A program made the translations under genes and the position numbers. Below the pieces are notes generated by a model. That model ran no database searches, was not told where the DNA came from, and was given only the letters and a program-made list of their open reading frames with translations. 64,000 nt of DNA from a bacterium (lineage in GTDB: Bacteria; Patescibacteriota; Minisyncoccia; Phycocordibacterales; UBA9973): positions 25,380-89,379 of the forward strand of contig JBBCGN010000001.1 of assembly GCA_037200905.1 (NCBI GenBank), in the 5' to 3' direction. Positions 29,390 through 43,543 of this stretch are shown here, one piece after another (the first letter of the stretch is position 1; each line of letters opens with the position of its first letter).

Positions 29390-30890
29390 TTATAGCGGAA
29401 CGTGGGACTGATTGTCAAAGAAGCGCCTGACGCTCCTGCCGAACATGAAAGAGGACAAACATGCGTATATGAGGAGCGTGGCCCACAACGGGAAATGCTT
29501 TATGGAGAGCGCGGCGAATGGGATTCGAGACAAGATGCCGATGACGCCGAGCTCGTATTTGAGAAAGGCGTAAGAAATGAATCCGAACGGCAGAGCGAGC
29601 ACCTGCCAGACGATTCCCGCGAAGCCGGTGATGAAGCCGAGGAACCATGGTAACGGGCACGAACGGCAGGACGAGAATATTAGCCGGCAAGGCTACGAGC
29701 GACAAGTTGCCCATCTCGTAGAGGATGAACGGCAGGACGAACAGGTACGCGGCCACCGTGACCGAAACGATGTCCCGCAGGCCGAAGCGCGGCGTCACCC
29801 ACAGGAAATATTTCTCGATCTTCGGCGACAAGAACACCACTGCCACGGTAGCGAGGAACGACAGCTGGAACGACACATCATATGCGAGCAGCATGGGATT
29901 GGCGAGTATCATGAGCACTCCGGCAAGGACGAGCGCCCGGCCGATGTCATAGGTGCGGCCGGTTGGCTCGGGCGACGAGAGCAAGCGTTGCCATGATGCC
30001 TGCCCGGATAGCCGTCGAGCTCGCGCCCGTCATGACGATGAAGGAGCGCGATGGCAAACACGCCGGCGCCGATGCCGACGAGGCGCGGCAGGAAGGCGAA
30101 GAGCTTCATGAACATTCGGCCACGATTGCTGACGTTGTAGCCGGAGAGGGCCACGATGTGGATGGTGCCCGTATTCACGAAACTCTGGCGCAGGGCCTTG
30201 TCGAATGAAGACTTTTCTCCCAGGATCAGCCCGCCCATGAGCAGGCTCTCCGGAGCCGGGATGGCGAAATTTATCCTGTCTACGAAAGCATCTTTTGGCG
30301 GCAAAGAGAGCGCTCTTTATCTTGTTACCGTTGCCGCGCGAAATACGCTCGATATCCGGATAGCTCATGACGTAAAATATGCCGTCCTTTTTCAGATAAT
30401 CGATGTAATCGAATTCCTTCCCTTGATCTCCGATAAAATTCTCGGGCTCCTCGAGCTCCCCTTCGAAAGCAATCTTGTCACCGTATTTGAAATCTTGGCC
30501 GAGGCTGGTAGGTGATGAGCACTTGGGTCTTGTCATCGCCGTTCTCGATCTCGACATCAAGAGCTATGTTATTCTCGCGGAACGTGGGTTCGTCCACCAC
30601 CTCGCCGGCGAATGAGGCTTTCTCGCCGAGCTGATTCTCGAATGCGCCAGGCGCGGATTGCGGCACCGCCTGGAAACGCAATGCGGCCGAGCGCGCACAG
30701 GAGGAAAAAGAGCGAACCGGCGATGCCCCAGCGCCACTTCGTGCCGATGAGAAAAATCAAGAAGAGCGAAAGCGAGAGCGCTCCGACGAGGATAACGATA
30801 TACGGATGAGAGATACGAAAGAAGCCAGCAGCACGCCGAAGTGCGCATCCGAAACAAGTACTGTAGAATACTCTGCCCCGCATACCGGAA
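29390..30890 (-). CDS. comEC: competence protein ComEC, DUF4131 plus competence domains only (no fused MBL domain); multiple frameshifts
   Basis: LILGEKSSFDKALRQSFVNTGTIHIVALSGYNVS and the competence TM domain. The DUF4131 N-terminus lies in 30030..30883. Confidence 0.75.
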
Positions 30891-30904
30891 AATGTATTAC
30901 AAAA

Positions 30905-31374
30905 ATATTATTTTGCAAGAGGCACCGGCTCGCCTTCTGCGAAGCTCGTGGCTATCAGATCCGCGCGATCATTGTACTTGTCTTCATTATGGCCTTTCAC
31001 ATAGGTCCATTTCGGCTTGAATTCCTGGTTGAGGATATGCAATTCTTCCCACAATTCTTTGTTGAGCACCGGTTTTCTTGGCGGCGTTGCGCCAATTATT
31101 TTTCATCCAGCCATGAATCCAGTCATTGATGCCGTTGATAACGTATTTGGAATCAGAATAAATTTCAACAGAACCCTGATAATTTATTTTTTTGCAGATA
31201 CTTCATCGCCTCTGTCGGCGCAGTGAGTTCCATCTGATTATTGGTCGCGTGATCTTTTCTCCCGCCAAGCTCATGAGTCTTGTCGCCTGACAGAATAATC
31301 GCTCCCCATCCTGCTTTGCCGGGATTTCCTTTGGCCGCACCGTCTGTATAAATTATCACTGTGTCGTTTTTCAT
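30905..31374 (-). CDS. rnhA: ribonuclease HI (frameshifted)
   Basis: [21 protein letters not shown]...TNNQMELTA. Confidence 0.75.
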
Positions 31375-31377
31375 AGA

Positions 31378-33062
31378 CTAAAGTATATCAAGAATTCTTA
31401 GACGGAGCTCTTCCCTGCCGCGAAAGCGGGAGAGATCGAATGTAGCGAGAACGTTCACAGGCGTTGAAGTCTCGAGCGAAGTGCTGAAAGAATCCATATT
31501 GGAAAAGAATGATACCGCTTTCGCCTTGTGATGTCCTTCATCGGAGAAAAGTATTTCTAAGTGCTCGCCCGAACCGTTCTTGCCGAAAGCCCGGACATTT
31601 TCGATCTTTATATTCTCGAACAGGAATACCGGCTTGGGATTGGCCAGGCCGAAAGGCGCCATCTTCTCTAGTTCGCGCCAGTTTGTCATAGTGCAGAGGC
31701 TGAAGTCGCCGGCAATGTCGGCGTCATTGGTCTTAGATTCGACAGCATGCTTGATATTGCCATACGATTCGGAAAGAGCATCCTCGAGAAAATGAATCTT
31801 GTCGGGATGAACAGTAAAGCCGCCAGCCAGTTCATGTCCGCCGAATTCCATAAAAGAATCGCTTGAGGCATTCATGAGTTCCACGACAGATACCGAGCCG
31901 TCGCTGCGGCACGAGCCCTTGATAGCATCATTCTCATCTTTGCCCCAGACGAATGCCGGCTTCTTATAAAGATCGCAGAGCTTTCCCGCTACCAATCCGA
32001 GCACGCCGACGCGCCATTCCGGATTCCCGACGACGATGACAGCCTTCATTTCCCTGATGCCGAACTTTTTATTCACGTCTTTCATGATAGCGGCAACGAT
32101 TTTCTTGCGATCATCATTTATCTTCGACAGGTGATTTGCCAATCTATCAGCATCTTCATCGTTCTCGGTAGAAAGCAATTCATAGGCCCGGAGCGGATCA
32201 TCCATTCGCGAAGCGGCGTTGAGCCGGGGCGTAAGCATGAAGCCGATGTCGTCTTCGGAGAGATACTGCTGCTCGATGCTCATCTTCTTCAAGAGTTTCT
32301 GCAGTCCTTTGCGCGGAGATTTGCGCATGGACCTTCATGCCGAAGTGGGCGATAGTCCTGTTCTCTCCGGTGAGCGGCACCATGTCGGAAAGCGTTCCGA
32401 GCCCCGCCATGTCGAGCATCCATTTTTCCGCGCCGGCCTTTATCTTGAAATATTCTCCGTATTTTTTTATGAAGCCTTGAGCGAATTTGAAAGGAATTTG
32501 AAAGCAACGCCCGAGCCGCAGAGCATCTTTCAGGATAATCGTCGGTCTTCGGATTGAGTACGGCGAAGGCACGAGGCAATTCGCCGGCGGCAAATGGTGA
32601 TCGGTGATGATGACATCCATACCGTCTACTGTTGCCTGAGCCACTTCTTCCACCGCCGTGATGCCAAGGTCGACAGTGATGATGAGCTTCACGCCGCTCT
32701 CGGCAAATTGCTTTATGGCAGTGAGATTCAGGCCATATCCTTCAGAAATTGCGCTTAGGAATATAAATCTCATAGTTCTTATAACCGGTTTTCTTGAGCA
32801 AATCTTCGAGAATGACCGCTCCCGGGATGCCGTCGCAGTCATAATCGGCATAAATGACGACCTTCTGATTGTTTTCGATAGCCTCGTAGAGCCGCACGCA
32901 GGCACGCTCCATGTCGCGCATGAGAAATGGATCGTGCAGGCCCTTTTCGTAATCGGGATTGAGAAAGAGATCGGCTTCTGCCACGTCGGTGATGCCCCGC
33001 TTGGCCAGTATTTTCTGCAGCAGCTCCGCGTATTTTTGCATAACTCGAATTTTAGCATACAA
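31378..33062 (-). CDS. recJ: single-stranded-DNA-specific exonuclease RecJ (frameshifted)
   Basis: VVIYADYDCDGIPGAVIL, IITDHH (DHH motif), and a DHHA1 C-terminal domain. Confidence 0.85.
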
Positions 33063-33073
33063 TAGAGAAAGTT

Positions 33074-33427
33074 ATGGATAACTGCATTTTCTGCAAAATA
33101 ATAAAGGGCGAAATACCGAGCTACAAGGTCTACGAAGATTCTGATTTCTTCGCTTTCCTCGACATTCACCCCAGAGGAGCGGGCCATGTGCAGGTCATCC
33201 CGAAGACTCACCATAGATACGTATGGGATGTGCCGAACGCCGGCGCATACTTCGAAGTCGTAAAAAAAATAGCCCTCGCACAGAAGAAGGCTTTCAATAC
33301 CGATATGGTGCGCAGCCAGATATACGGCGAAGAAGTGCCTCATGCCCACATCTGGGTCTGGCCGGAGGCCGAAGGAAACCGAGAAGCATTCGAAGAGAAC
33401 GCGCAAAAGATTACTCAAGCCCTTTGA
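33074..33427 (+). CDS. HIT-family protein
   Basis: CIFCKII...HPRGAGHVQVIPK histidine-triad region. Confidence 0.75.
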   Translation: MDNCIFCKIIKGEIPSYKVYEDSDFFAFLDIHPRGAGHVQVIPKTHHRYVWDVPNAGAYFEVVKKIALAQKKAFNTDMVRSQIYGEEVPHAHIWVWPEAEGNREAFEENAQKITQAL

Positions 33428-34406
33428 TTTTCTTTGCTAAGCCGTATCCGTTGCCATGAGAAAGCATTCCTACATAGGAAGCAATCGACTCAGGCTTCGG
33501 ATTTTTTCTTATATTTCGGTACATCCTCCTTTTTGTCGCAGTTCGTAAAACTCTATGGTTCGGAAAATGCACCCAGCCGAGAAAATCCACGCCGGAAGCG
33601 GCGGTCTTGATAAATACTTTGTCGGGATGCATGTGCAATTTCAGTTCGGTTTCCAGAAAATCTTTCATCCGTACCAATACGCCCCTCTACATATTCCTTG
33701 TCTTCCGAGAGGACGGCAAAATCATCGGCATACTGATATAGCATTTCACCTTGAGCCTGTGCTCCACGAACTGGTCGAACTCGTTCATATAGACGTTGAC
33801 CAGGAGCTGGCTGGTTAGGTTGCCGAGCGGCAGGCCCACTTGGACACCCGGTGTCCAAGTGGTGGAAAAGCTGTCGATAACGGTCGTGAGCAGCCAGAGC
33901 GTGTCAGCTTCACCTATGTGTTTCGCCAAAATCTTCTTGAGGATATCATGATCGATGTTGGCGAAGAATTTCCTGATGTCGCACTTCAGGACGTAGCAGG
34001 TTCGGGTATTGTTCTTCGACGTTCTGCGGAAGAAATGCCTGAACCGGTCCATGGCCCTGTGCGTGCCTTTGCCTATCCGGCAGGAATATGAATCGTAGAT
34101 GAACTTCTTGTCGAAGAATGGATACAACATTCTGTATATAGCATGGTGCAGCAGCCGATCGCGCACGCTCGCCTTGTGTATGTCGCGGGGTTTGGGGTCG
34201 GAAATCTTGAATGCACGGTATCCGGAATGTTTATATTTTTTTGTTTTCAAATTCAGATGCAAATTGAGCAAGTTTTCCATCAGATTTCTCTCAAAAATTT
34301 GAACATCCTCCTTGTTCCTTTTATCTTTTTTAAACTCTTTCCAGGCTAAAAGCAGATTCTCCAAGGATATGGTAACATCATATGCATGACTGCAAATTTT
34401 TCTCAC
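33411..34406 (-). CDS. DGR reverse transcriptase (2 frameshifts)
   Basis: RT motifs DIRKFFANIDHDIL, GLPLGNLTSQLLVNVYMNEFD (the DGR-type [I/L]GxxxSQ), QYADDFAVLS, and thumb LHMHPDKVFI..GVDFLGW. A C10 tract at 34421-34430 lies just upstream of the GTG start. Confidence 0.85.
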
Positions 34407-34446
34407 AGATCAAATAGTAACCCCCCCCCCGACGATTTTGCCAGTC

Positions 34447-34765
34447 ATGCAAAAAGTGAAAACTGTGTATATCCTCTGGTTTGATTGCTATAAAAAATTA
34501 GAAAAAGTACACAAATACACACTTGGACAAAAATCGACAACTTGTTCGTAGAAATTATAGAGGCTATAGCTATAGCTACTTTTTTAGACAAGACAGAAAA
34601 ACAGCCATGGATACGGCTGGCTATTCGAAAATTGGATACGATAAAAATACTTCTGATGATATTGTGGGAGGTGAAATCTATTGATAATAAAAAATATATG
34701 CATATCTCTATGCCGCTCGAAGAAATCGGCAGATGCTCGGCGGATGGAACGGACAGATCGCAAAA
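34447..34765 (+). CDS. candidate Avd-like accessory protein (four-helix-bundle / 23S-IVS family), one frameshift, on the opposite strand to the RT and TR
   Basis: MQKVKTVYILWFDCYKKLEKVHKYTLGQK.. then ..QPWIRLAIRKLDTIKILLMILWEVKSIDNKKYMHISMPLEEIGR. From memory this resembles the ..KEEKYGLTSQLRR..FIQFLRIAKGSLAEtqyhLlLA..L.YI..eEy..L......eEigKML pattern. Confidence 0.35.
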
Positions 34766-34770
34766 CAAAA

Positions 34771-34792
34771 CTCCCCTGCCAAAGCAGGGGAG
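34771..34792 (-). promoter_or_regulatory. 9-bp stem-loop immediately 3' of the TR (candidate DGR RNA structural element)
   Basis: ctcccctgc caaa gcaggggag, 13 nt beyond the end of the TR. Confidence 0.5.
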
Positions 34793-34804
34793 AAATGAAG
34801 AAAG

Positions 34805-34903
34805 TTTCGGACACCCCCGAACCACCAGTTGTCGTTCCTGTCGTTGTCGTTCTGGTTGACGTTCACATTCGGCTCATCGTTCCACCGGTTGAAGTTCACG
34901 AAG
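34805..34903 (-). repeat. DGR template repeat (TR)
   Basis: About 96-bp identity to 35259-35354 except at 14 positions, all plus-strand T (coding-strand A). The TR frame encodes an Asn-rich peptide, NFNRWNDEPNVNVNQNDNDRNDNWWFGGVR. Confidence 0.9.
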
Positions 34904-35171
34904 ATGCGTATAAAATATCTTCCGGGCCACTGCGAGCTTAACAAATCGTAAAGCTTCGCTGTATTTTATTTGTGATGGTAATCACTCAATATTTTATACC
35001 AAGTATCTTCAATTTTTGAAGTTTCTGCACAAACAACCCTGATTGAAACCTTATGTAATAAAATGACCTACCGGGTTGATTCCAAAGATTCTCTGTTTGT
35101 GGATACTGGTTTCGGCAGCATGAAATCGTAATTCCATACAAATTCGCCTAATACCGCTTTTTAGTATAACA

Positions 35172-35200
35172 AAAAAAACGGAATTTTAAAAAAATTCCGT
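35172..35200 (-). terminator. terminator after the DGR target gene
   Basis: aacggaatttt / aaaattccgtt perfect hairpin with T-runs on both strands. Confidence 0.55.
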
Positions 35201-35236
35201 TTAGAACTAAGGACTAAGTACAAAAGAGTACTGAGT

Positions 35237-35867
35237 TCAAAGCGATAAGTTCTGCTTGCGGACACCCCCGAACCACCAGTAGTCGTACCCGACGTAGTCG
35301 TCCTGGCCGACGCGCACAATCGGCTCATCGTCCCACCGGTCGAAGTCCACGAAGCACCATTTGCCTTTTGCATTTTTCCAATGCGTACCGTTCGGGCGCG
35401 TATCGGCGAATAAAGGGTCGGCTTCGTTCACGGCGCATTGTGCCAGGGGGTCAGGCTTGAGACCGCGAAGATCATATTCTTTTTCCAAATCCTCATCGCT
35501 GATATAGCGATCCATTTTTGAAGAAAAAGACATCTGTTTCTTCGCCTTCGCCTTTCGGCATGTTAGCAACAACATCATTGCTGACATATTGCTTTCTGCC
35601 TGTGGCATCCAATGCTTCCTGTGGAGCGCGTTTGCGATTCACCTGTACATGACGAACAATCATGTTGCTCTGTGCGTCTATATACTTGTGGATAATGGGC
35701 TCCAGTTCATCCACGAGAGCCTCGGCATTCTGCTCAAGAACCTTTTGTGTCGGTTCATTGGCAAAACTTTTTTGTTCTTGCGCAGACGAGCTTGCGAGAA
35801 TTTCGCAAATTTTACCGATCTGGCCCTCGGTAATGGGGCTCAATGGGTTCATGATTTTCTTGTCCAT
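35237..35867 (-). CDS. DGR target (variable) protein, about 210 aa, one frameshift near 35500-35600
   Basis: Start MDKKIMNP at 35867 with no signal peptide; VR at the C-terminus (..WCFVDFDRWDDEPIVRVGQDDYVGYDYWWFGGVRKQNLSL*). Confidence 0.75.
35259..35354 (-). repeat. DGR variable repeat (VR) at the 3' end of the target gene
   Basis: Encodes DFDRWDDEPIVRVGQDDYVGYDYWWFGGVR. The differences from the TR are confined to TR adenines. Confidence 0.9.
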
Positions 35868-35949
35868 GACGTCATTATTTAAATTATGAAGAACGATTGC
35901 AAGCTTGAAATCCCAAATGGGTATAGGGCATAGCTCATATTCACCCTAT

Positions 35950-36010
35950 CTATGGATTATACACCTATTTATGTAAAAAGTCAATACACACAAAGCCTTG
36001 TGAAATAGGC
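35950..36010 (-). promoter_or_regulatory. hairpin plus consensus promoter module, copy A (drives the DGR target gene)
   Basis: Minus strand: AAGCCT atttcaca AGGCTT hairpin (terminator for pgk), then TTGACT-N17-TATAAT. Confidence 0.6.
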
Positions 36011-37202
36011 TTATTCCAGGACCTTGATGCCCGGCAGAGTGCCGCTCGCCAGGAAGTCGAGGGCGGCTCCGCCGCCGGTCGAGACGAAGGTGAATTCGTT
36101 CTCAATCTTCAATTCGGAAATGACGGCTGCCGTGTCTCCCCCGCCGATGATGGAAATAGTACCGTTCTTTGTCGCACCTGCAATCAATCGCAATATGGCT
36201 TTCGTAGCTTCTGCCCCGCCGTCTTCGTATTTGCCGAGCGGACCGTTCCACAGGATGAGCTTCGCCGCCGCGATGAGCGGCCTTGCAAGTTCTACGGCGT
36301 TCGCGCCGAGATCGATGATAGTATCAGTCTTCTCGATATCGTGAGCATTCTTCTCGATAAGAATGCCATCTTCCATTTTCACTAGCACATCTTCCGAGAT
36401 AACGAGCTTCGGATTGCCGAGCATCTTGTCGATGCCGAAGTCTCCTTCAGAAACGAAGTGAACGCCCCACCTCAAACCCCTTTGCCTTGAGAAAATCATT
36501 GAGCATGGCCCCGCCGATGAAGAGATTGTCAGCAGTACCGATGTATCTATTGATGATAGGAAGCTTGGTATCGAATTTCGCGCCGCCGAGGATGAAGAGA
36601 AACGGATGTTCCGGCCTTTCAAAGGCGATTGAAAGGTGTTTCACTTCGCTCTCAAGCTGGAAACCCGCGTATGAAGGAAGCAGGGTCGGCACAAGGGTGA
36701 TTGAAGAATCATCTCTATGGCAGACAGGGAAAGCATCGTTCACGTAGATATCTGCAAGAGCAGCGAGAGCCTTGGCAAATTCCATATCTTTTCCTTGCTC
36801 GCCCGGATTCATGCGCAGATTCTCTAGCAGAATAACATCGCCAGATGCCATAGCCTGCACGGCCTCAGTCACTTTCGCACCGATAACTTCGGGAATAAAT
36901 TTTGAAGGAATGTATTTCGCAAGCGCTGCTGCAACAGGTGCAAGCGACTCAGTACCTTTGCCGAGATGAGTGATGAGGATTACTTTCATGCCGAGTTCTG
37001 ATAAGAACTTAATTGTCAGCAGAGCTTTCTGAATGCGAAAATCGTCTGTGATCACGCCATCCTGAATCGGTACGTTAAAATCAACGCGCACGAGCGCTGC
37101 TTTGCCCTGCATGTCTTTCAATTCTTTGATGGATTTCATAAATCGGAGCGGAGCATGGTTCTTGAAAGGGCTTGCGCAGGCCGACGGGCCGAGCAGGAGC
37201 AA
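36011..37202 (-). CDS. pgk: phosphoglycerate kinase (one frameshift)
   Basis: Two collinear fragments, with ..NGPLGKYE.. and ..GGGDTAAVI...GGGAALDFL. Confidence 0.85.
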
Positions 37203-41458: not shown

Positions 41459-41528
41459 GGCTGATTCATCTATATAGTATAAAAAGAAAAAGTCCTGGAA
41501 ATATTTCCAGGACCTGAAGATGTAAAAA

Positions 41529-42197
41529 CTACTGCGTGTGATTGCGGAAAAAAGATCGATCGCCGGCACGCCACTCGAAGGAGGCACGGAACTCAACGAC
41601 GAACACGTCCCAGCCGTCGTCGTTCCAGTACACGCACACGCCGCACAAAGCGCCTTTCTTGTTTCTGACCCAGAAGAGATTGGCGTAACCATTGTCGAGA
41701 AGGAGCTTTTCTCCTCCCACGATATGCCGTTCGCAAATCTGCTTGACGTGGGCCATATCCACTTCTTCATAGATCCCACCGGCTTTCGCGTCGCCGATAA
41801 TATTCTCTTCGGTGATATCTTCGGTGAATTTGTAGCTCGCCAGTTCTTTCGCGGGAGAGTTTTTCACTTCGGTCTCTAACCAGCTGAAGATATCGCCGTC
41901 GACATGTACAAAGATACCGCCTTGGTCTTTTGTCTTGAAGAAATCTTTGGTGTTGAAAGATTCGGTCGCTTCCAGACTTATGCCGGAAACGGCACGCTTG
42001 AGACGTCCAGAGATTTCGGAAACACCTGTAATGCCGAAAATCTCGTCTCTCTTGCTCGCCGACATCTTTAAAAACTTCTCAAGATGAAGTATGAATCTCC
42101 CGTCGTTCTTTTTTACAGCCGCTCTCAGCCGTTCAAGAATGCTTCCTTGCAGTCCAAATACTTTATCCGGATCTGCACCGATGTTTTTGTTTGCCAT
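41529..42197 (-). CDS. hypothetical protein (222 aa) driven by promoter module copy B
   Basis: ORF MANKNIGADPDK.. with no recognisable motif, embedded in the pilus cluster. Confidence 0.5.
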   Translation of the reverse strand: MANKNIGADPDKVFGLQGSILERLRAAVKKNDGRFILHLEKFLKMSASKRDEIFGITGVSEISGRLKRAVSGISLEATESFNTKDFFKTKDQGGIFVHVDGDIFSWLETEVKNSPAKELASYKFTEDITEENIIGDAKAGGIYEEVDMAHVKQICERHIVGGEKLLLDNGYANLFWVRNKKGALCGVCVYWNDDGWDVFVVEFRASFEWRAGDRSFFRNHTQ

Positions 42198-42261
42198 CAG
42201 TTTAAATTTTAAATGAACAAATCAGTCCGATTACATTTCTTGCATAGGCGGACTTTTACCT

Positions 42262-42325
42262 ATATGTATATTATACACCTATTTATGTAAAAAGTCAATA
42301 TTACGAAGCCTTGTGAAATAAAGGT
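42262..42325 (-). promoter_or_regulatory. hairpin plus consensus promoter module, copy B
   Basis: The minus strand reads tatttcacaaggctt..attgactttttacataaataggtgtataat, near-identical to 35955-36000. Confidence 0.6.
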
Positions 42326-42337
42326 TTTTCAGGAAAA

Positions 42338-43543
42338 TTAGTTGATATTGTTGAGGATCGAGTAGAGCGGCGTCACCATGGAGATGGCGAAGAAACCGAC
42401 GCCCGCGCCGATGACGATCATCAGTATCGGCTCGATGATAGTGGAAAGATTGGCAGTTTTCGCCTCGATTTCGCCTTCGTAAAATGTCGCCACTTCGAGC
42501 AGCATGTCGGAGAGCTTGCCCGTCTCCTCGCCCACTTGGATCATCTCCGCCATCATGACGGGATAGAGCTTCGGGTTGTTGACGAATACCTGGGAGAACG
42601 GCGCGCCCTTTTCGATATCGACGACGGCCTGATCGAGGACTTTCTTGTAATACACGTTCTGCACCACGTCCTTGGTGATCTCGATGGCCCGGGTGATGGA
42701 TACGCCGGAAAGGAGGAGCGACGACATGGTGCGAGCGGTACGAGCGGTGTTGAGCTCGCGGGTCATGGTGCCGATCACCGGCAGGCGCACCACGATGAAG
42801 TCGATATATTTCGCCATGAACGGCGCCCGGAAGAGATAGATGATTCCCGCGATGATGACGATGATGGAAACGAGCGACAGGAAGAGGTACTGCGAGAAGA
42901 AGTTGCCGAGAGCGATGATGAAGCGCGTGGTCGCGGGCAATGTCACTCCGAGCTCCTGGAAGGTCTTGGCGAGCGTCGGCACCACGAAGGCGAACATCAG
43001 CACGCCGATGAGCACCATGGCGGACATGATGACGCCCGGGTAGATAAGCGCGCCCTTCACTTTCTTCGTCAGGTTGTTGGCTTTCTCGAGGTTGCCGCCC
43101 ACTTCGGTGAGCGCGCCGGCCAGGTTGCCGGATTCTTCGCCGGCTTTCGTCATGGAGACGAAGAGGTTCGAAAAAGTGCCGGGGAACTTGGCGATGCCGG
43201 AGGAAAAAGTGCCGCCCGCGTTGATTTCCGCAGTCACGGAGTTGAGGATGTTGGTCAGCGCCCTTTTCTTGGTCTGCTTCTGCAGCACGGACAGCGCCCG
43301 CGAGAGCGAGAGCCCCGCCTTGATCATGCCCGAGAGGTTCTTCGTTATGAGTATCAATTCCGAAGCCTTCACTTTGCCGAAGAATCTGTCGAAGAACACG
43401 GAGAGGTCGAACTGCTTACCTTCTTCTGCGATGGTTATCGGGATGAGTCCTTTCGTCAGGAGCTCGTGCGACACGGCGAAAGGTCCCCGGCCTCCATGGT
43501 GCCGAGTGAGAGCTCGCCGGTCTTCGATTTTGCCTTGTAGGAA
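42338..43543 (-). CDS. pilC: type IV pilus assembly platform protein PilC (GspF family); one frameshift near the N-terminus
   Basis: Two T2SF repeats (..LSRALSVLQKQ...GNLAGALTEVGGNLE; ..LSDMLLEVATFYEGEIE..). Confidence 0.85.
   Translation of the reverse strand, partial: FLQGKIEDRRALTRHHGGRGPFAVSHELLTKGLIPITIAEEGKQFDLSVFFDRFFGKVKASELILITKNLSGMIKAGLSLSRALSVLQKQTKKRALTNILNSVTAEINAGGTFSSGIAKFPGTFSNLFVSMTKAGEESGNLAGALTEVGGNLEKANNLTKKVKGALIYPGVIMSAMVLIGVLMFAFVVPTLAKTFQELGVTLPATTRFIIALGNFFSQYLFLSLVSIIVIIAGIIYLFRAPFMAKYIDFIVVRLPVIGTMTRELNTARTARTMSSLLLSGVSITRAIEITKDVVQNVYYKKVLDQAVVDIEKGAPFSQVFVNNPKLYPVMMAEMIQVGEETGKLSDMLLEVATFYEGEIEAKTANLSTIIEPILMIVIGAGVGFFAISMVTPLYSILNNIN

Follow-up and report, generated by a model that had tools for sequence, protein, structure and literature searches.

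The element at positions 33411–35867 of the 64-kb stretch of DNA analyzed here (hereafter, the window) is a diversity-generating retroelement (DGR). On the minus strand, its components follow each other in the order: target gene with the variable repeat (VR), a unit for the RNA carrying the template repeat (TR), avd (accessory variability determinant, on the opposite strand), and the gene of the reverse transcriptase (RT). The whole is best explained as a chromosomal DGR of Patescibacteria (CPR) of the B3 type, working by the mechanism proposed below; we put the probability of this reading at about 0.85.

The B3 type, TR-(avd)-RT, makes up 90% of CPR DGRs (Wu et al. 2018, PMC5758913), and its order with a reverse avd was matched here (TR, 34903–34805; avd, plus strand, 34447–34798; RT, 34406–33411). 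A “DGR clade 2” confined to Patescibacteria has also been described (Roux et al. 2021, PMC8144416). The window stems from a MAG of Patescibacteria type. The layout is already known as typical of CPR bacteria, and with at least 8000 homologs in its RT family and a published layout, the DGR is ordinary as a kind, one more representative of a known and very large class. An earlier note, made from the sequence alone, had described a complete DGR with RT, TR, VR, and target. This call was sound: its core reading was right throughout and is reinforced by the relatives described below. The word “complete” holds once probable assembly errors are corrected, but not for the sequence as deposited, in which RT, avd, and target are frameshifted. 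The avd gene, present between TR and RT on the opposite strand, had been overlooked. A tRNA scan revealed no tRNA genes within the 64-kb window, and therefore there is no obvious integration-site signal.

Template and Variable Repeats

The TR (34805–34903, minus strand) contained 30 adenines in 99 nt and 10 AAY codons. The VR (35256–35354, minus strand), lying at an offset of 451 nt from the TR, covered the final ~33 codons of the target ORF, at its 3′ end. Direct comparison recovered the previously described 96-bp repeat pair with 14 mismatches at the coordinates reported for it and extended the homology slightly, to 99 nt with 15 mismatches. At all 15 mismatched positions, the TR reads T on its plus strand and hence A on its coding (minus) strand, which upholds the earlier claim of adenine-only mismatches; the chance of 15 out of 15 mismatches falling at A is 7.2e-10 (hypergeometric; 30 A in 99 nt). 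Codon positions 1 and 2 held 14 of the 15 changes. The translated TR copy and VR, NFNRWNDEPNVNVNQNDNDRNDNWWFGGVR and DFDRWDDEPIVRVGQDDYVGYDYWWFGGVR, respectively, agree with the translations given before, and the AAY-codon signature ascribed to the TR was borne out by the codon count. Mutagenesis could recode up to 10 AAY codons and 7 others containing A, for a theoretical repertoire of ~7e15 proteins; none of these changes can produce a stop codon.

The VR 3′ segment CTGGTGGTTCGGGGGTGTCCG (the last 22 nt before position 35258) was called IMH-like because it is A-free, GC-rich, and identical in the TR; beyond it, the flanks diverge. The TR and VR were the sole sites of the 20-mer TGGTGGTTCGGGGGTGTCCG in the 64-kb window, and neither the search with the IMH-like 20-mer nor a scan scoring only non-A TR positions found further targets of the TR in the window. 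About 24 nt past the end of the TR/VR homology, a small AT-rich hairpin, AGTAC-tctttt-GTACT, was found (35217–35232, minus strand). Many relatives have a hairpin at an equal distance with different stems (e.g., GGATC/GATCC, GGTTC/GAACC, and GTGAGC/GCTCAC). By analogy with the BPP-1 paradigm, it is a candidate target-recognition hairpin.

The cassette target-VR-TR-(avd)-RT was present in 49 of the 80 related species genomes (80 loci kept), and the TR-avd-RT order was the same in all relatives having it. In these 49 genomes, 689 of 705 TR/VR mismatches were located at TR adenines. Alignment A2 of related loci was made without a few loci whose TR flanks had been mis-placed by automatic anchoring. 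In a 90%-identity cluster of a relative (P0030), 14 sequences were identical over residues 4–168 and differed almost only at the VR; judged from these sequences, VR-only variation is ongoing in a close relative.

Target Gene and Its Promoter

The target gene (35237–35867, minus strand) encoded a variable protein of 209 aa once one frameshift was corrected: the gene is split over two frames at the A5/T5 run 35515–35519. No signal peptide was found, and the corrected protein fits the earlier description of a target of ~210 aa without one. Neither Pfam nor NCBIfam yielded a domain match for the target. Its C-terminal half was predicted to be C-type-lectin-like; a Foldseek comparison of the target model with PDB and BFVD gave nothing significant. 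The target family, encoded in 143 species genomes, comprised 306 homologs, conserved in the body and hypervariable at the C-terminus.

The target gene is preceded by a promoter-like module, TTGACT-17-TATAAT (35956–35984, minus strand), which matched the consensus at 11 of 12 positions and is inferred to act as a promoter. The duplication of this module, which had been noticed before, is real: in addition to the copy at 35984–35956, an exact second copy was found at 42298–42270, with an identity of ~31 nt and 0 copies expected by chance. The ORF with the same promoter (41529–42197) was considered as a relative of the target and rejected, as BLASTP related it neither to this target nor to that of locus L088. 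It is a member of a different DGR-target-type family, and no TR partner for it was found in the window. From this work, two families of small DGR targets can be defined in Paceibacteria-type genomes, both of ~200–220 aa. After the target gene, the terminator scan detected a terminator-like hairpin of 12 bp with a T-run (35166–35202, minus strand); relatives have a GC-rich hairpin and a T-run at the same place.

Reverse Transcriptase, Avd, and Frameshifts

The gene at 33411–34406 (minus strand) encoded a DGR-type RT of 331 aa after the correction of two frameshifts. The motifs GLPLGNLTSQ (LGxxxSQ) and YADD were readable in the sequence, and YADD was still present after the correction. Both motifs and the length of ~330 aa had been named in the earlier note, and these points stand, but the gene is split over three frames here. 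The RT scored 84 bits against Pfam RVT_1. Its closest solved relative was the Bordetella phage bRT (8ub7_A, E 9.8e-43, full length), a match 25 orders of magnitude better than those of group II and retron RTs (~1e-18; 2e-4 for the retron Ec83 RT). The RTs of relatives gave collinear tblastn matches with 53–69% identity.

The avd gene (34447–34798, plus strand), identified by three-frame translation, encoded 117 aa after two 1-nt corrections. The product scored 47.4 bits against Pfam bAvd (cut-off 40); the best NCBIfam match was DivGenRetAVD with 58.9 bits, under the cut-off of 80, and no sequence match was found in PDB. The gene runs in the opposite direction to RT, TR, and target, both here and in every related locus where tblastn found it. 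An Avd accompanies most DGRs, though not all.

Together, RT, avd, and target contained five frameshifts, all of 1 nt, in ~2 kb of DGR coding sequence, each readable as a length change in a run of 2–5 identical bases. Two compensating shifts in the RT gene (both minus strand) flank the YADD box: a 1-nt deletion at ~33727–33737 (ATCAG^TATGCC) on one side and a 1-nt insertion in the G4 run 33682–33685 on the other. YADD, lying between these shifts near 33730 and 33685, is consequently in a frame other than that of the RT N-terminus, and the N-terminal frame has a stop codon after the first shift. In avd, two 1-nt deletions were found, in the A-run 34529–34533 and in AGATG at ~34731–34735 (plus strand).

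Five frameshifts in ~2 kb, two of them flanking the catalytic YADD, could mean that the DGR is decayed and inactive, with RT, avd, and target being true pseudogenes and the TR/VR differences reflecting past activity only. Remnants do exist among the relatives: loci L006, L037, and L044 contain the leader RNA either without TR/avd or with no more than a C-terminal RT fragment. We regard decay of the present element as unlikely, however. The neighboring genes pgk, recJ, rnhA, and comEC are likewise split across frames, and such breakage of essential and housekeeping genes is biologically implausible; RecJ is intact in the syntenic relatives L100 and L101. The DGR shifts are of the single-base, run-length type, the sequence is otherwise collinear with intact homologs and has no further lesions, and the RNA helices of the window copy are intact. 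Because pgk, recJ, rnhA, and comEC are also frameshifted, the five shifts in RT, avd, and target are read as being, most probably, assembly indel errors.

TR RNA Unit

Sequence comparison places the TR within a candidate RNA unit of ~395 nt, comprising a structured leader of ~250 nt, a helix joining this leader to the TR 3′ flank, and a hairpin at the 3′ end. A promoter scan detected a candidate TR-RNA promoter, TTTAAA-16-TATACT with the extended −10 TGTTATACT (35163–35190, minus strand). In relatives, a conserved TGnTAnAAT-like motif directly followed the terminator T-run, and the leader start GGTAGTAGGCGAATAT, also conserved, came ~8–12 nt after it; from these motifs, we infer the transcription start of the TR RNA.

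The structured 5′ leader (34904–35156, minus strand) was delineated by covariation. The model includes, all on the minus strand, helices P1 (35155–35145/35117–35108), P1a (35139–35130/35127–35118), P2 (35101–35094/35035–35028), P2a (35088–35078/35050–35040), P3 (34999–34988/34919–34908), P3a (34985–34980/34977–34972), and P3b (34959–34956/34935–34932), as well as the segment S1 (35014–35006). RNAalifold, applied to 37 loci, proposed 85 pairs with compensatory changes in 52; TR-internal pairs were dropped from the model because they showed no compensatory change. In the leader model, 95.2% of cells were paired, versus 39–48% with the partners slid; both sides were changed in 54 of the 72 pairs (422 cells), and 0 of 500 shuffles were as good. 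In the window copy, 68 of the 72 model pairs were canonical. The covariance model R1, trained on the 37 loci, also recovered loci that had been held out, as well as DGRs whose targets are unrelated, with E values of 1e-27 to 1e-30. No Rfam family was found at the gathering threshold in the window, and region 34380–35300 gave only sub-threshold chance matches.

On the 3′ side, the TR is followed by the conserved linker CTT-TCTTCATTT (34793–34804, minus strand), which overlaps the stop codon of the oppositely oriented avd. The linker segment S1′ (34801–34793) pairs with the leader S1 (35014–35006) in the consensus model, a pairing that RNAalifold proposed unaided: 89.7% of cells were paired, versus 39–65% when slid, and 0 of 500 shuffles were as good. 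Compensatory changes were found in 5 pairs (10 cells), with more cases in loci outside the alignment. A leader of ~250 nt covarying 5′ of the TR and a helix between it and the 3′ flank had no published description in the literature searched.

Next to the linker, the terminator scan found the 9-bp hairpin that the earlier note had placed after the TR (34792–34771, minus strand). It has a tetraloop, CTCCCCTGC-TTTG-GCAGGGGAG, and is followed by TTTTGTTTTG (34762–34792 in all); on the other strand, it falls in the last ~10 codons of avd. The hairpin was present in nearly all relatives with differing stem sequences, and 6 of the 7 counted pairs were changed on both sides. Published Avd-binding stem-loops are located directly 3′ of the TR and commonly have 9 bp and a tetraloop; by analogy, the hairpin is a candidate Avd-binding site; it may also, or instead, act as an intrinsic terminator for the TR RNA. 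If it is an efficient terminator, the RT would need its own promoter; none was clearly identified.

Repeat Tract between avd and RT

The divergent start codons of avd and RT are separated by a 40-nt spacer (34407–34446), which contains a homopolymer, C10 (G10 when read in the RT direction), at 34421–34430. A tract of G7–G12, with a mode of 10, occupied the equivalent place in 46 of the 50 related loci in which a tract could be scored, and in loci L066, L072, and L070, it was replaced by (CTGG)x11 or (GGTT)x7. The tract length differed within otherwise identical flanks (G9 vs. G11) and varied from G10 to G13 in contigs encoding an identical RT protein; several contigs ended inside the tract. 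Most relatives had the hexamer TAnnnT directly after the tract and a conserved CTGGCA before it. The G10 tract is a candidate hypermutable simple-sequence repeat, and it may make the expression of the mutagenic machinery phase-variable. A G-tract or tetranucleotide repeat between avd and RT had no published description in the literature searched. Homopolymer length differences between assemblies can also stem from sequencing error.

The conservation of the 330 nt between target and TR could also have causes other than RNA, such as protein-binding DNA sites or a small ORF, and the G-tract could be a fixed promoter or spacer, or an artefact. The extended −10 and the terminator in this region are plainly DNA-level signals, poly-G is error-prone in short reads, and assemblies break there. 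Against this stand the compensatory changes in 54 of 72 pairs, the drop in pairing from 95% to ~40–48% upon sliding, and the covariance model of 37 loci, which recovers loci kept out of it and DGRs whose targets are unrelated. The substitution of (CTGG)11 or (GGTT)7 for the G-run in a subclade is hard to square with a fixed site or sequencing error. Such an explanation is, in our opinion, very unlikely, and we keep to a structured TR RNA and a candidate hypermutable repeat.

Proposed Mechanism

That TR and VR are an assembly duplication or a chance repeat beside an unrelated RT of the group II intron or retron type is effectively refuted: mis-assembly can create repeats, and the top-scoring NCBIfam RT model was that of a group II intron RT/maturase (145 bits, below the cut-off of 300), but every one of the 15 mismatches falls at a TR adenine (P 7e-10), the same layout and bias occur in 49 other species genomes, the RT is far nearer to bRT than to RTs of either unrelated type, and Avd is present.

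For the B3-type DGR, the following mechanism is proposed. A TR RNA of ~395 nt would be transcribed from the extended −10 promoter near 35163–35171 and would consist of the ~250-nt leader, the 99-nt TR, and the 9-bp hairpin with a U-tract, ending at ~34762. RT and Avd would be expressed from the short divergent spacer and both bind the TR RNA, Avd probably at the 3′ hairpin and RT probably at the leader. Pairing of S1 with the linker 3′ of the TR would make reverse transcription begin at the 3′ end of the TR. The cDNA, made with random misincorporation opposite adenines, would then replace the VR, with the 3′ segment (A-free and GC-rich) and a flanking hairpin directing the homing.

A broader and clearly more tentative proposal, which we consider possible rather than probable, is that a large Patescibacterial DGR clade uses a stand-alone template RNA of ~400 nt with recognition and priming mainly 5′ and a retron-like S1 pairing, i.e., a permutation of the BPP-1 RNA, together with a G-tract or tetranucleotide repeat gating RT and Avd. 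If true, hypermutation itself would be phase-variable. Of more use than the DGR itself is the comparative work, which offers a concrete, testable picture of how the commonest CPR DGR layout could work, with avd occupying the place of the BPP-1 spacer RNA; the parts of this picture are the RNA boundaries, 72 proposed covarying pairs with a long-range helix at the TR 3′ end, and a candidate on/off repeat tract. As the hosts are uncultivated, sequence-derived models are a practical route to reconstitution experiments.

Comparison with Known Systems

The element belongs to the CPR B3 DGRs, from which nothing essential differs. The host group, the component order with avd on the reverse strand, the A-to-N bias, and the AAY-rich TR are the same, as is the small target with a C-terminal VR and without a recognizable domain or transmembrane segment.

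The DGR of phage BPP-1 (mtd-avd-TR-brt; Handa et al., bioRxiv 10.1101/2023.10.23.563531; PDB 8ub7–8ube) has an RT homologous to ours over the full length (E 9.8e-43), and Avd is present in both. The BPP-1 stem-loop directly 3′ of the TR, which binds Avd there, has a candidate counterpart here, and the S1:S1′ pairing resembles the duplex of sequences up- and downstream of the TR in the BPP-1 “cPRT stop” idea. The BPP-1 target has a C-type-lectin-type fold, and the C-terminal half of our target is predicted to be C-type-lectin-like. The DGR variable proteins Mtd, TvpA, TaqVP, and AvpA display their VR on such a fold. The essential RNA of BPP-1 lies almost wholly 3′ of the TR, with ~20 nt upstream (Handa et al., bioRxiv 10.1101/2023.10.23.563531). 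In contrast, a large conserved structure is located 5′ of the TR here, and the 3′ part is limited to a 12-nt linker, one hairpin, and a U-tract. Where the inverted avd sits here, BPP-1 has a 140-nt spacer RNA. Unlike in BPP-1, a hairpin also follows the TR, besides the post-VR hairpin. Finally, the BPP-1 DGR is carried by a phage and diversifies a tail-fibre target, while the present one is chromosomal and its target is a small protein without a signal peptide.

In retrons, the msr-msd RNA has a structured part 5′ of the template, and its 5′ strand pairs 3′ of the template, so that reverse transcription starts beside this duplex. The likeness of the TR RNA to this arrangement is one of topology only. 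The RT homology is not at the retron level (~1e-18, and 2e-4 for Ec83, vs. 1e-43 for bRT), and unlike in retrons, no msDNA is implied here, the product being used for homing into the VR.

Phase-variable promoters are found in Neisseria, where porA and opc have homopolymer spacers, and in Haemophilus, where divergent hifA-hifB have TA repeats. As in these systems, the avd-RT repeat sits in a short intergenic or upstream stretch, and its length is polymorphic. However, the porA/opc and hifA-hifB repeats control surface antigens, whereas the candidate switch of the avd-RT tract would act on a mutagenic retroelement in an uncultivated CPR host.

TR/VR Repeat Pair

A 99-nt direct repeat was found on the minus strand at 34805-34903 (A-rich copy) and 35256-35354 (second copy). 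Comparison of the copies revealed 15 differing positions, and at each of them the A-rich copy carries T on the plus strand, that is, A on the minus strand, on which the ORF ending at 35237 is encoded. Because the A-rich copy contains 30 adenines in 99 nt, the probability of all 15 differences hitting adenines by chance is 7.2e-10. Codon positions 1 and 2 hold 14 of the 15 differences, and 10 AAY codons are present in the A-rich copy. Taken together, the A-only differences, the codon-position bias, and the AAY codons identify 34805-34903 as the TR and 35256-35354 as the VR of a DGR. The adenine-specific mismatches claimed in the earlier note were thus confirmed; the DGR is real, and its first interpretation was correct. 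The final 22 nt ahead of the homology end are free of A, GC-rich, and identical in TR and VR, and in a search of the whole window, the 20-mer TGGTGGTTCGGGGGTGTCCG was confined to these two copies. From the TR, a theoretical repertoire of ~7e15 protein variants was computed, in which no stop codon can arise.

Genes of the Cassette

The RT gene (33411-34406, minus strand) is split over three frames in the assembly; joining them at a 1-nt deletion (ATCAG^TATGCC, ~33730) and a 1-nt insertion (G4, 33682-33685) yields a protein of 331 aa that contains the LGNLTSQ and YADD motifs and matches Pfam RVT_1 with 84 bits. Its nearest solved relative is the RT of the Bordetella phage DGR (8ub7_A), with an E of 9.8e-43 over the full length, compared with ~1e-18 for the RTs of group II introns and retrons. 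The 400-nt stretch separating TR from RT, in which the earlier note placed no gene, proved to encode Avd on the plus strand (34447-34798; 117 aa after the correction of two 1-nt deletions, at ~34531 and ~34733). This protein passes the gathering score of Pfam bAvd (47.4 bits against 40), and its best NCBIfam match, DivGenRetAVD, falls short of the cut-off (58.9 bits against 80). The target, encoded on the minus strand by the ORF ending at 35237, comprises 209 aa once its frames, broken at an A5 run (35515-35519), are joined. It contains 17 variable codons and lacks an export signal.

Relatives of the Target and the Cassette

With the corrected target as a query, 306 homologs of ~200 aa were retrieved, all from Patescibacteria-type sources; no Pfam domain was found in any of them. 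Their bodies are conserved, whereas the C-termini are hypervariable (F.R....R.V.V.R...W...WWFAGVRK). The scan for related loci, restricted to one genome per species, identified 143 genomes with a target homolog, and 80 loci were kept. The arrangement of target, TR (410-540 nt beyond the VR), opposite-strand avd, and RT was present in 49 of the 80 loci, and 689 of 705 TR/VR mismatches (48 distinct loci) fell on TR adenines. In the 90%-identity cluster of homolog P0030, 14 sequences from different samples have identical residues 4-168 and differ almost exclusively in the VR, so the target family is diversifying in nature.

In the window, the RT is followed by an opposite-strand HIT-family gene (33074-33427) and recJ. 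The order RT-HIT-recJ is conserved beside a 69%-identical RT in two related loci, L100 and L101; therefore, the chromosomal site of the DGR is syntenic among related genomes.

Leader RNA and TR Flanks

Downstream of the TR, the relatives share a conserved linker CTCTCTTCATTTC, then carry an 8-13-bp hairpin with a stem sequence differing between loci, and then GTTTTGTTTT. In the window, the linker, hairpin, and tail lie at 34804-34762 on the minus strand, are terminator-like by scan, and overlap the 3' end of the oppositely oriented avd, including its final codons and stop. In homolog P0124, a member of the P0030 cluster and a relative of locus L002, the C-terminus (...FAGVRNSLLSPSTI) corresponds to the translated linker and hairpin 3' of a TR instead of the VR flank; two origins can be considered, chimeric assembly of VR and TR or a homing event that brought TR-flanking sequence into the target.

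The ~330 nt from the target stop to the TR are conserved block-wise in the relatives. A small hairpin ~24 nt after the VR, kept in position and not in sequence, is followed by a GC-rich hairpin with a T-run, terminator-like, and then by an extended -10 motif TGnTAnAAT. The leader itself is ~250 nt long and begins at a conserved GGTAGTAGGCGAATAT. RNAalifold predicted 85 pairs from 37 loci, 52 of them with compensatory changes; TR-internal pairs, which showed no double changes, were removed from the structure model. Standard pairing was observed in 95.2% of cells vs. 39-48% with partners slid by 1-3 columns, and double-sided changes in 422 cells vs. 50-83 when slid. Double changes were present in 54 of 72 pairs, and none of 500 shuffles matched the observed pairing values. 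The window copy retains 68 of the 72 pairs as canonical. No Rfam family matched the leader region. Leader, TR, and 3' hairpin together would make up a predicted separate transcript of ~395 nt (minus strand, ~35156 to ~34762).

A long-range helix joins the leader segment AAATGAAGA (S1, 35014-35006) with TCTTCATTT located directly 3' of the TR (S1', 34801-34793). It is 89.7% paired vs. 39-65% when slid, with 10 compensatory cells, and loci outside the alignment carry further compensatory pairs: AAATGAAAA/TTTTCATTT, GTGAAGA/TCTTCAC, CTGAAGA/TCTTCAG, and AAAGATA/TATCTTT.

The covariance model of the leader 5' domain (R1) detected held-out loci and, at E 1e-27 to 1e-30, three further DGRs (L086, L088, and L089), the RT and Avd of which are homologous to those of the window while their targets are unrelated to the window target. 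This places the leader with the RT/Avd machinery rather than with the target. The RTs of these DGRs share 64-68% identity with the window RT and accompany the same leader RNA, and their TR/VR pairs are 111-127 nt long. Their targets, of 223 (L086 314-985), 159 (L088 2102-2581), and 217 aa (L089 2008-2661), are small proteins unrelated to one another. The core DGR machinery thus appears to be modular as regards targets.

About 30 loci encode a target homolog without a TR, some with cassette remnants. The leader 5' domain persists in several seemingly "orphan" loci (L006 4709-5105, L037 943-1265, L044 4756-4866, and L022 4822-4964); in two of them, L006 and L037, it lies across or immediately ahead of a fragment of the RT C-terminus. 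These leader-bearing loci resemble DGR cassettes that have lost the TR, avd, and the RT N-terminus through internal deletion.

Repeat Tract between avd and RT

The divergent start codons of avd and RT are separated by a spacer (34407-34446) containing a C10 tract (34421-34430; G10 on the RT strand). The tract could be scored in 50 related loci; a run of G7-G12, with a mode of 10, occupies the equivalent place in 46 of them, and in three loci (L066, L072, and L070) it is replaced by (CTGG)x11 or (GGTT)x7. A conserved CTGGCAAAAG lies ahead of the tract, and in most relatives a TAnnnT hexamer comes directly after it; we infer from these sequences that the tract may be a repeat spacer inside a promoter. 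Near-identical loci differ solely in tract length (G9 vs. G11), and contigs of different samples encoding an identical RT protein carry G10, G11, G12, or G13, several of them breaking off in the tract. Short contigs (L095-L097 and L102) terminate within the tract, which in L031 is a stretch of N. Part of these length differences may stem from sequencing error; however, the tetranucleotide repeats found in place of the G-run argue that repetitiveness itself has been kept. The most economical reading of the tract is a putative phase-variable switch of the mutagenic machinery. No paper linking DGRs with homopolymeric tracts as such a switch was found in a literature search.

Frameshifts and Sequence Context

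The deposited annotation shows gene splits identical to ours. In addition to the DGR genes, PGK (36011-37202) lies in two frames (profile positions 4-232 and 253-377), RNase H (30908-31374) is split (3-61 and 97-138), the DHH domain of RecJ (31378-33062) is in a frame different from that of DHHA1 and OB, and ComEC (29415-30560) is likewise divided. These housekeeping splits at 29415-37202 point to indel errors in that part of the deposited assembly. An operon-like run at 22.8-29 kb appears to be free of frameshifts. Genuine pseudogenisation of the DGR is much less likely than assembly error, given that its neighbours are split alike, RecJ is intact in the syntenic L100 and L101, and all five DGR frameshifts are single-base changes readable as altered length of runs of 2-5 identical bases.

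The promoter-like module (~31 nt) located upstream of the DGR target recurs as an exact duplicate at 42270-42298 on the minus strand, upstream of a 222-aa ORF (41529-42197, minus strand). The latter belongs to a second set of ~210-aa Patescibacterial proteins, distinct from the DGR target family, and its family also combines a conserved body with a hypervariable C-terminus (LC.V.V....GW.V.V..F.....W.AG.RSFFRN); thus, it is a DGR-target-type protein. No TR partner for it was found in the 64-kb window. Both variable-protein loci lie in low-GC islands (33500-36000 and 41500-42500; 0.42-0.46 vs. 0.50-0.62 in the flanks), perhaps because of their AT-rich non-coding portions or because they were acquired from elsewhere.

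Comparison with Published DGRs

[quoted passage not shown] (2018, PMC5758913). Roux et al. (2021, PMC8144416) described a DGR clade confined to Patescibacteria with targets lacking recognisable domains, among which they expected novel C-type-lectin variants. Since both the layout and the clade are already published, the DGR of the window belongs to the known CPR B3 kind. Two family-wide features visible through comparison only, the leader RNA and the repeat tract, add some interest to this otherwise modest DGR; their roles, proposed from sequence comparison, are well-supported hypotheses. No account of such a leader was found in the searchable literature.

In the Bordetella phage DGR, the essential RNA comprises ~20 nt upstream of the TR and a 140-nt downstream spacer, which supplies an Avd-binding stem-loop right after the TR, a separate RT-binding stem-loop, and the adenosine used for priming, located where the spacer forms a short duplex with the TR 3' end, and which also forms a duplex with a segment upstream of the TR (Handa et al., 10.1101/2023.10.23.563531). 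For 207 DGRs, those of CPR among them, that group analysed 40 nt upstream and 100 nt downstream of the TR and predicted upstream-downstream duplexes as well as stem-loops for Avd binding, which commonly have 9 bp and a tetraloop. The 9-bp tetraloop hairpin of the window fits the Avd-binding stem-loop just after the TR. Unlike the Bordetella phage RNA, the window has an antisense avd beyond this hairpin and a large conserved structure 5' of the TR. The RT-binding and priming functions may have shifted to the leader, and the S1:S1' helix would set the start point of reverse transcription. The last A-to-N change, at 34807, is 3 nt short of the homology end, a position consistent with reverse transcription starting at the TR 3' junction.
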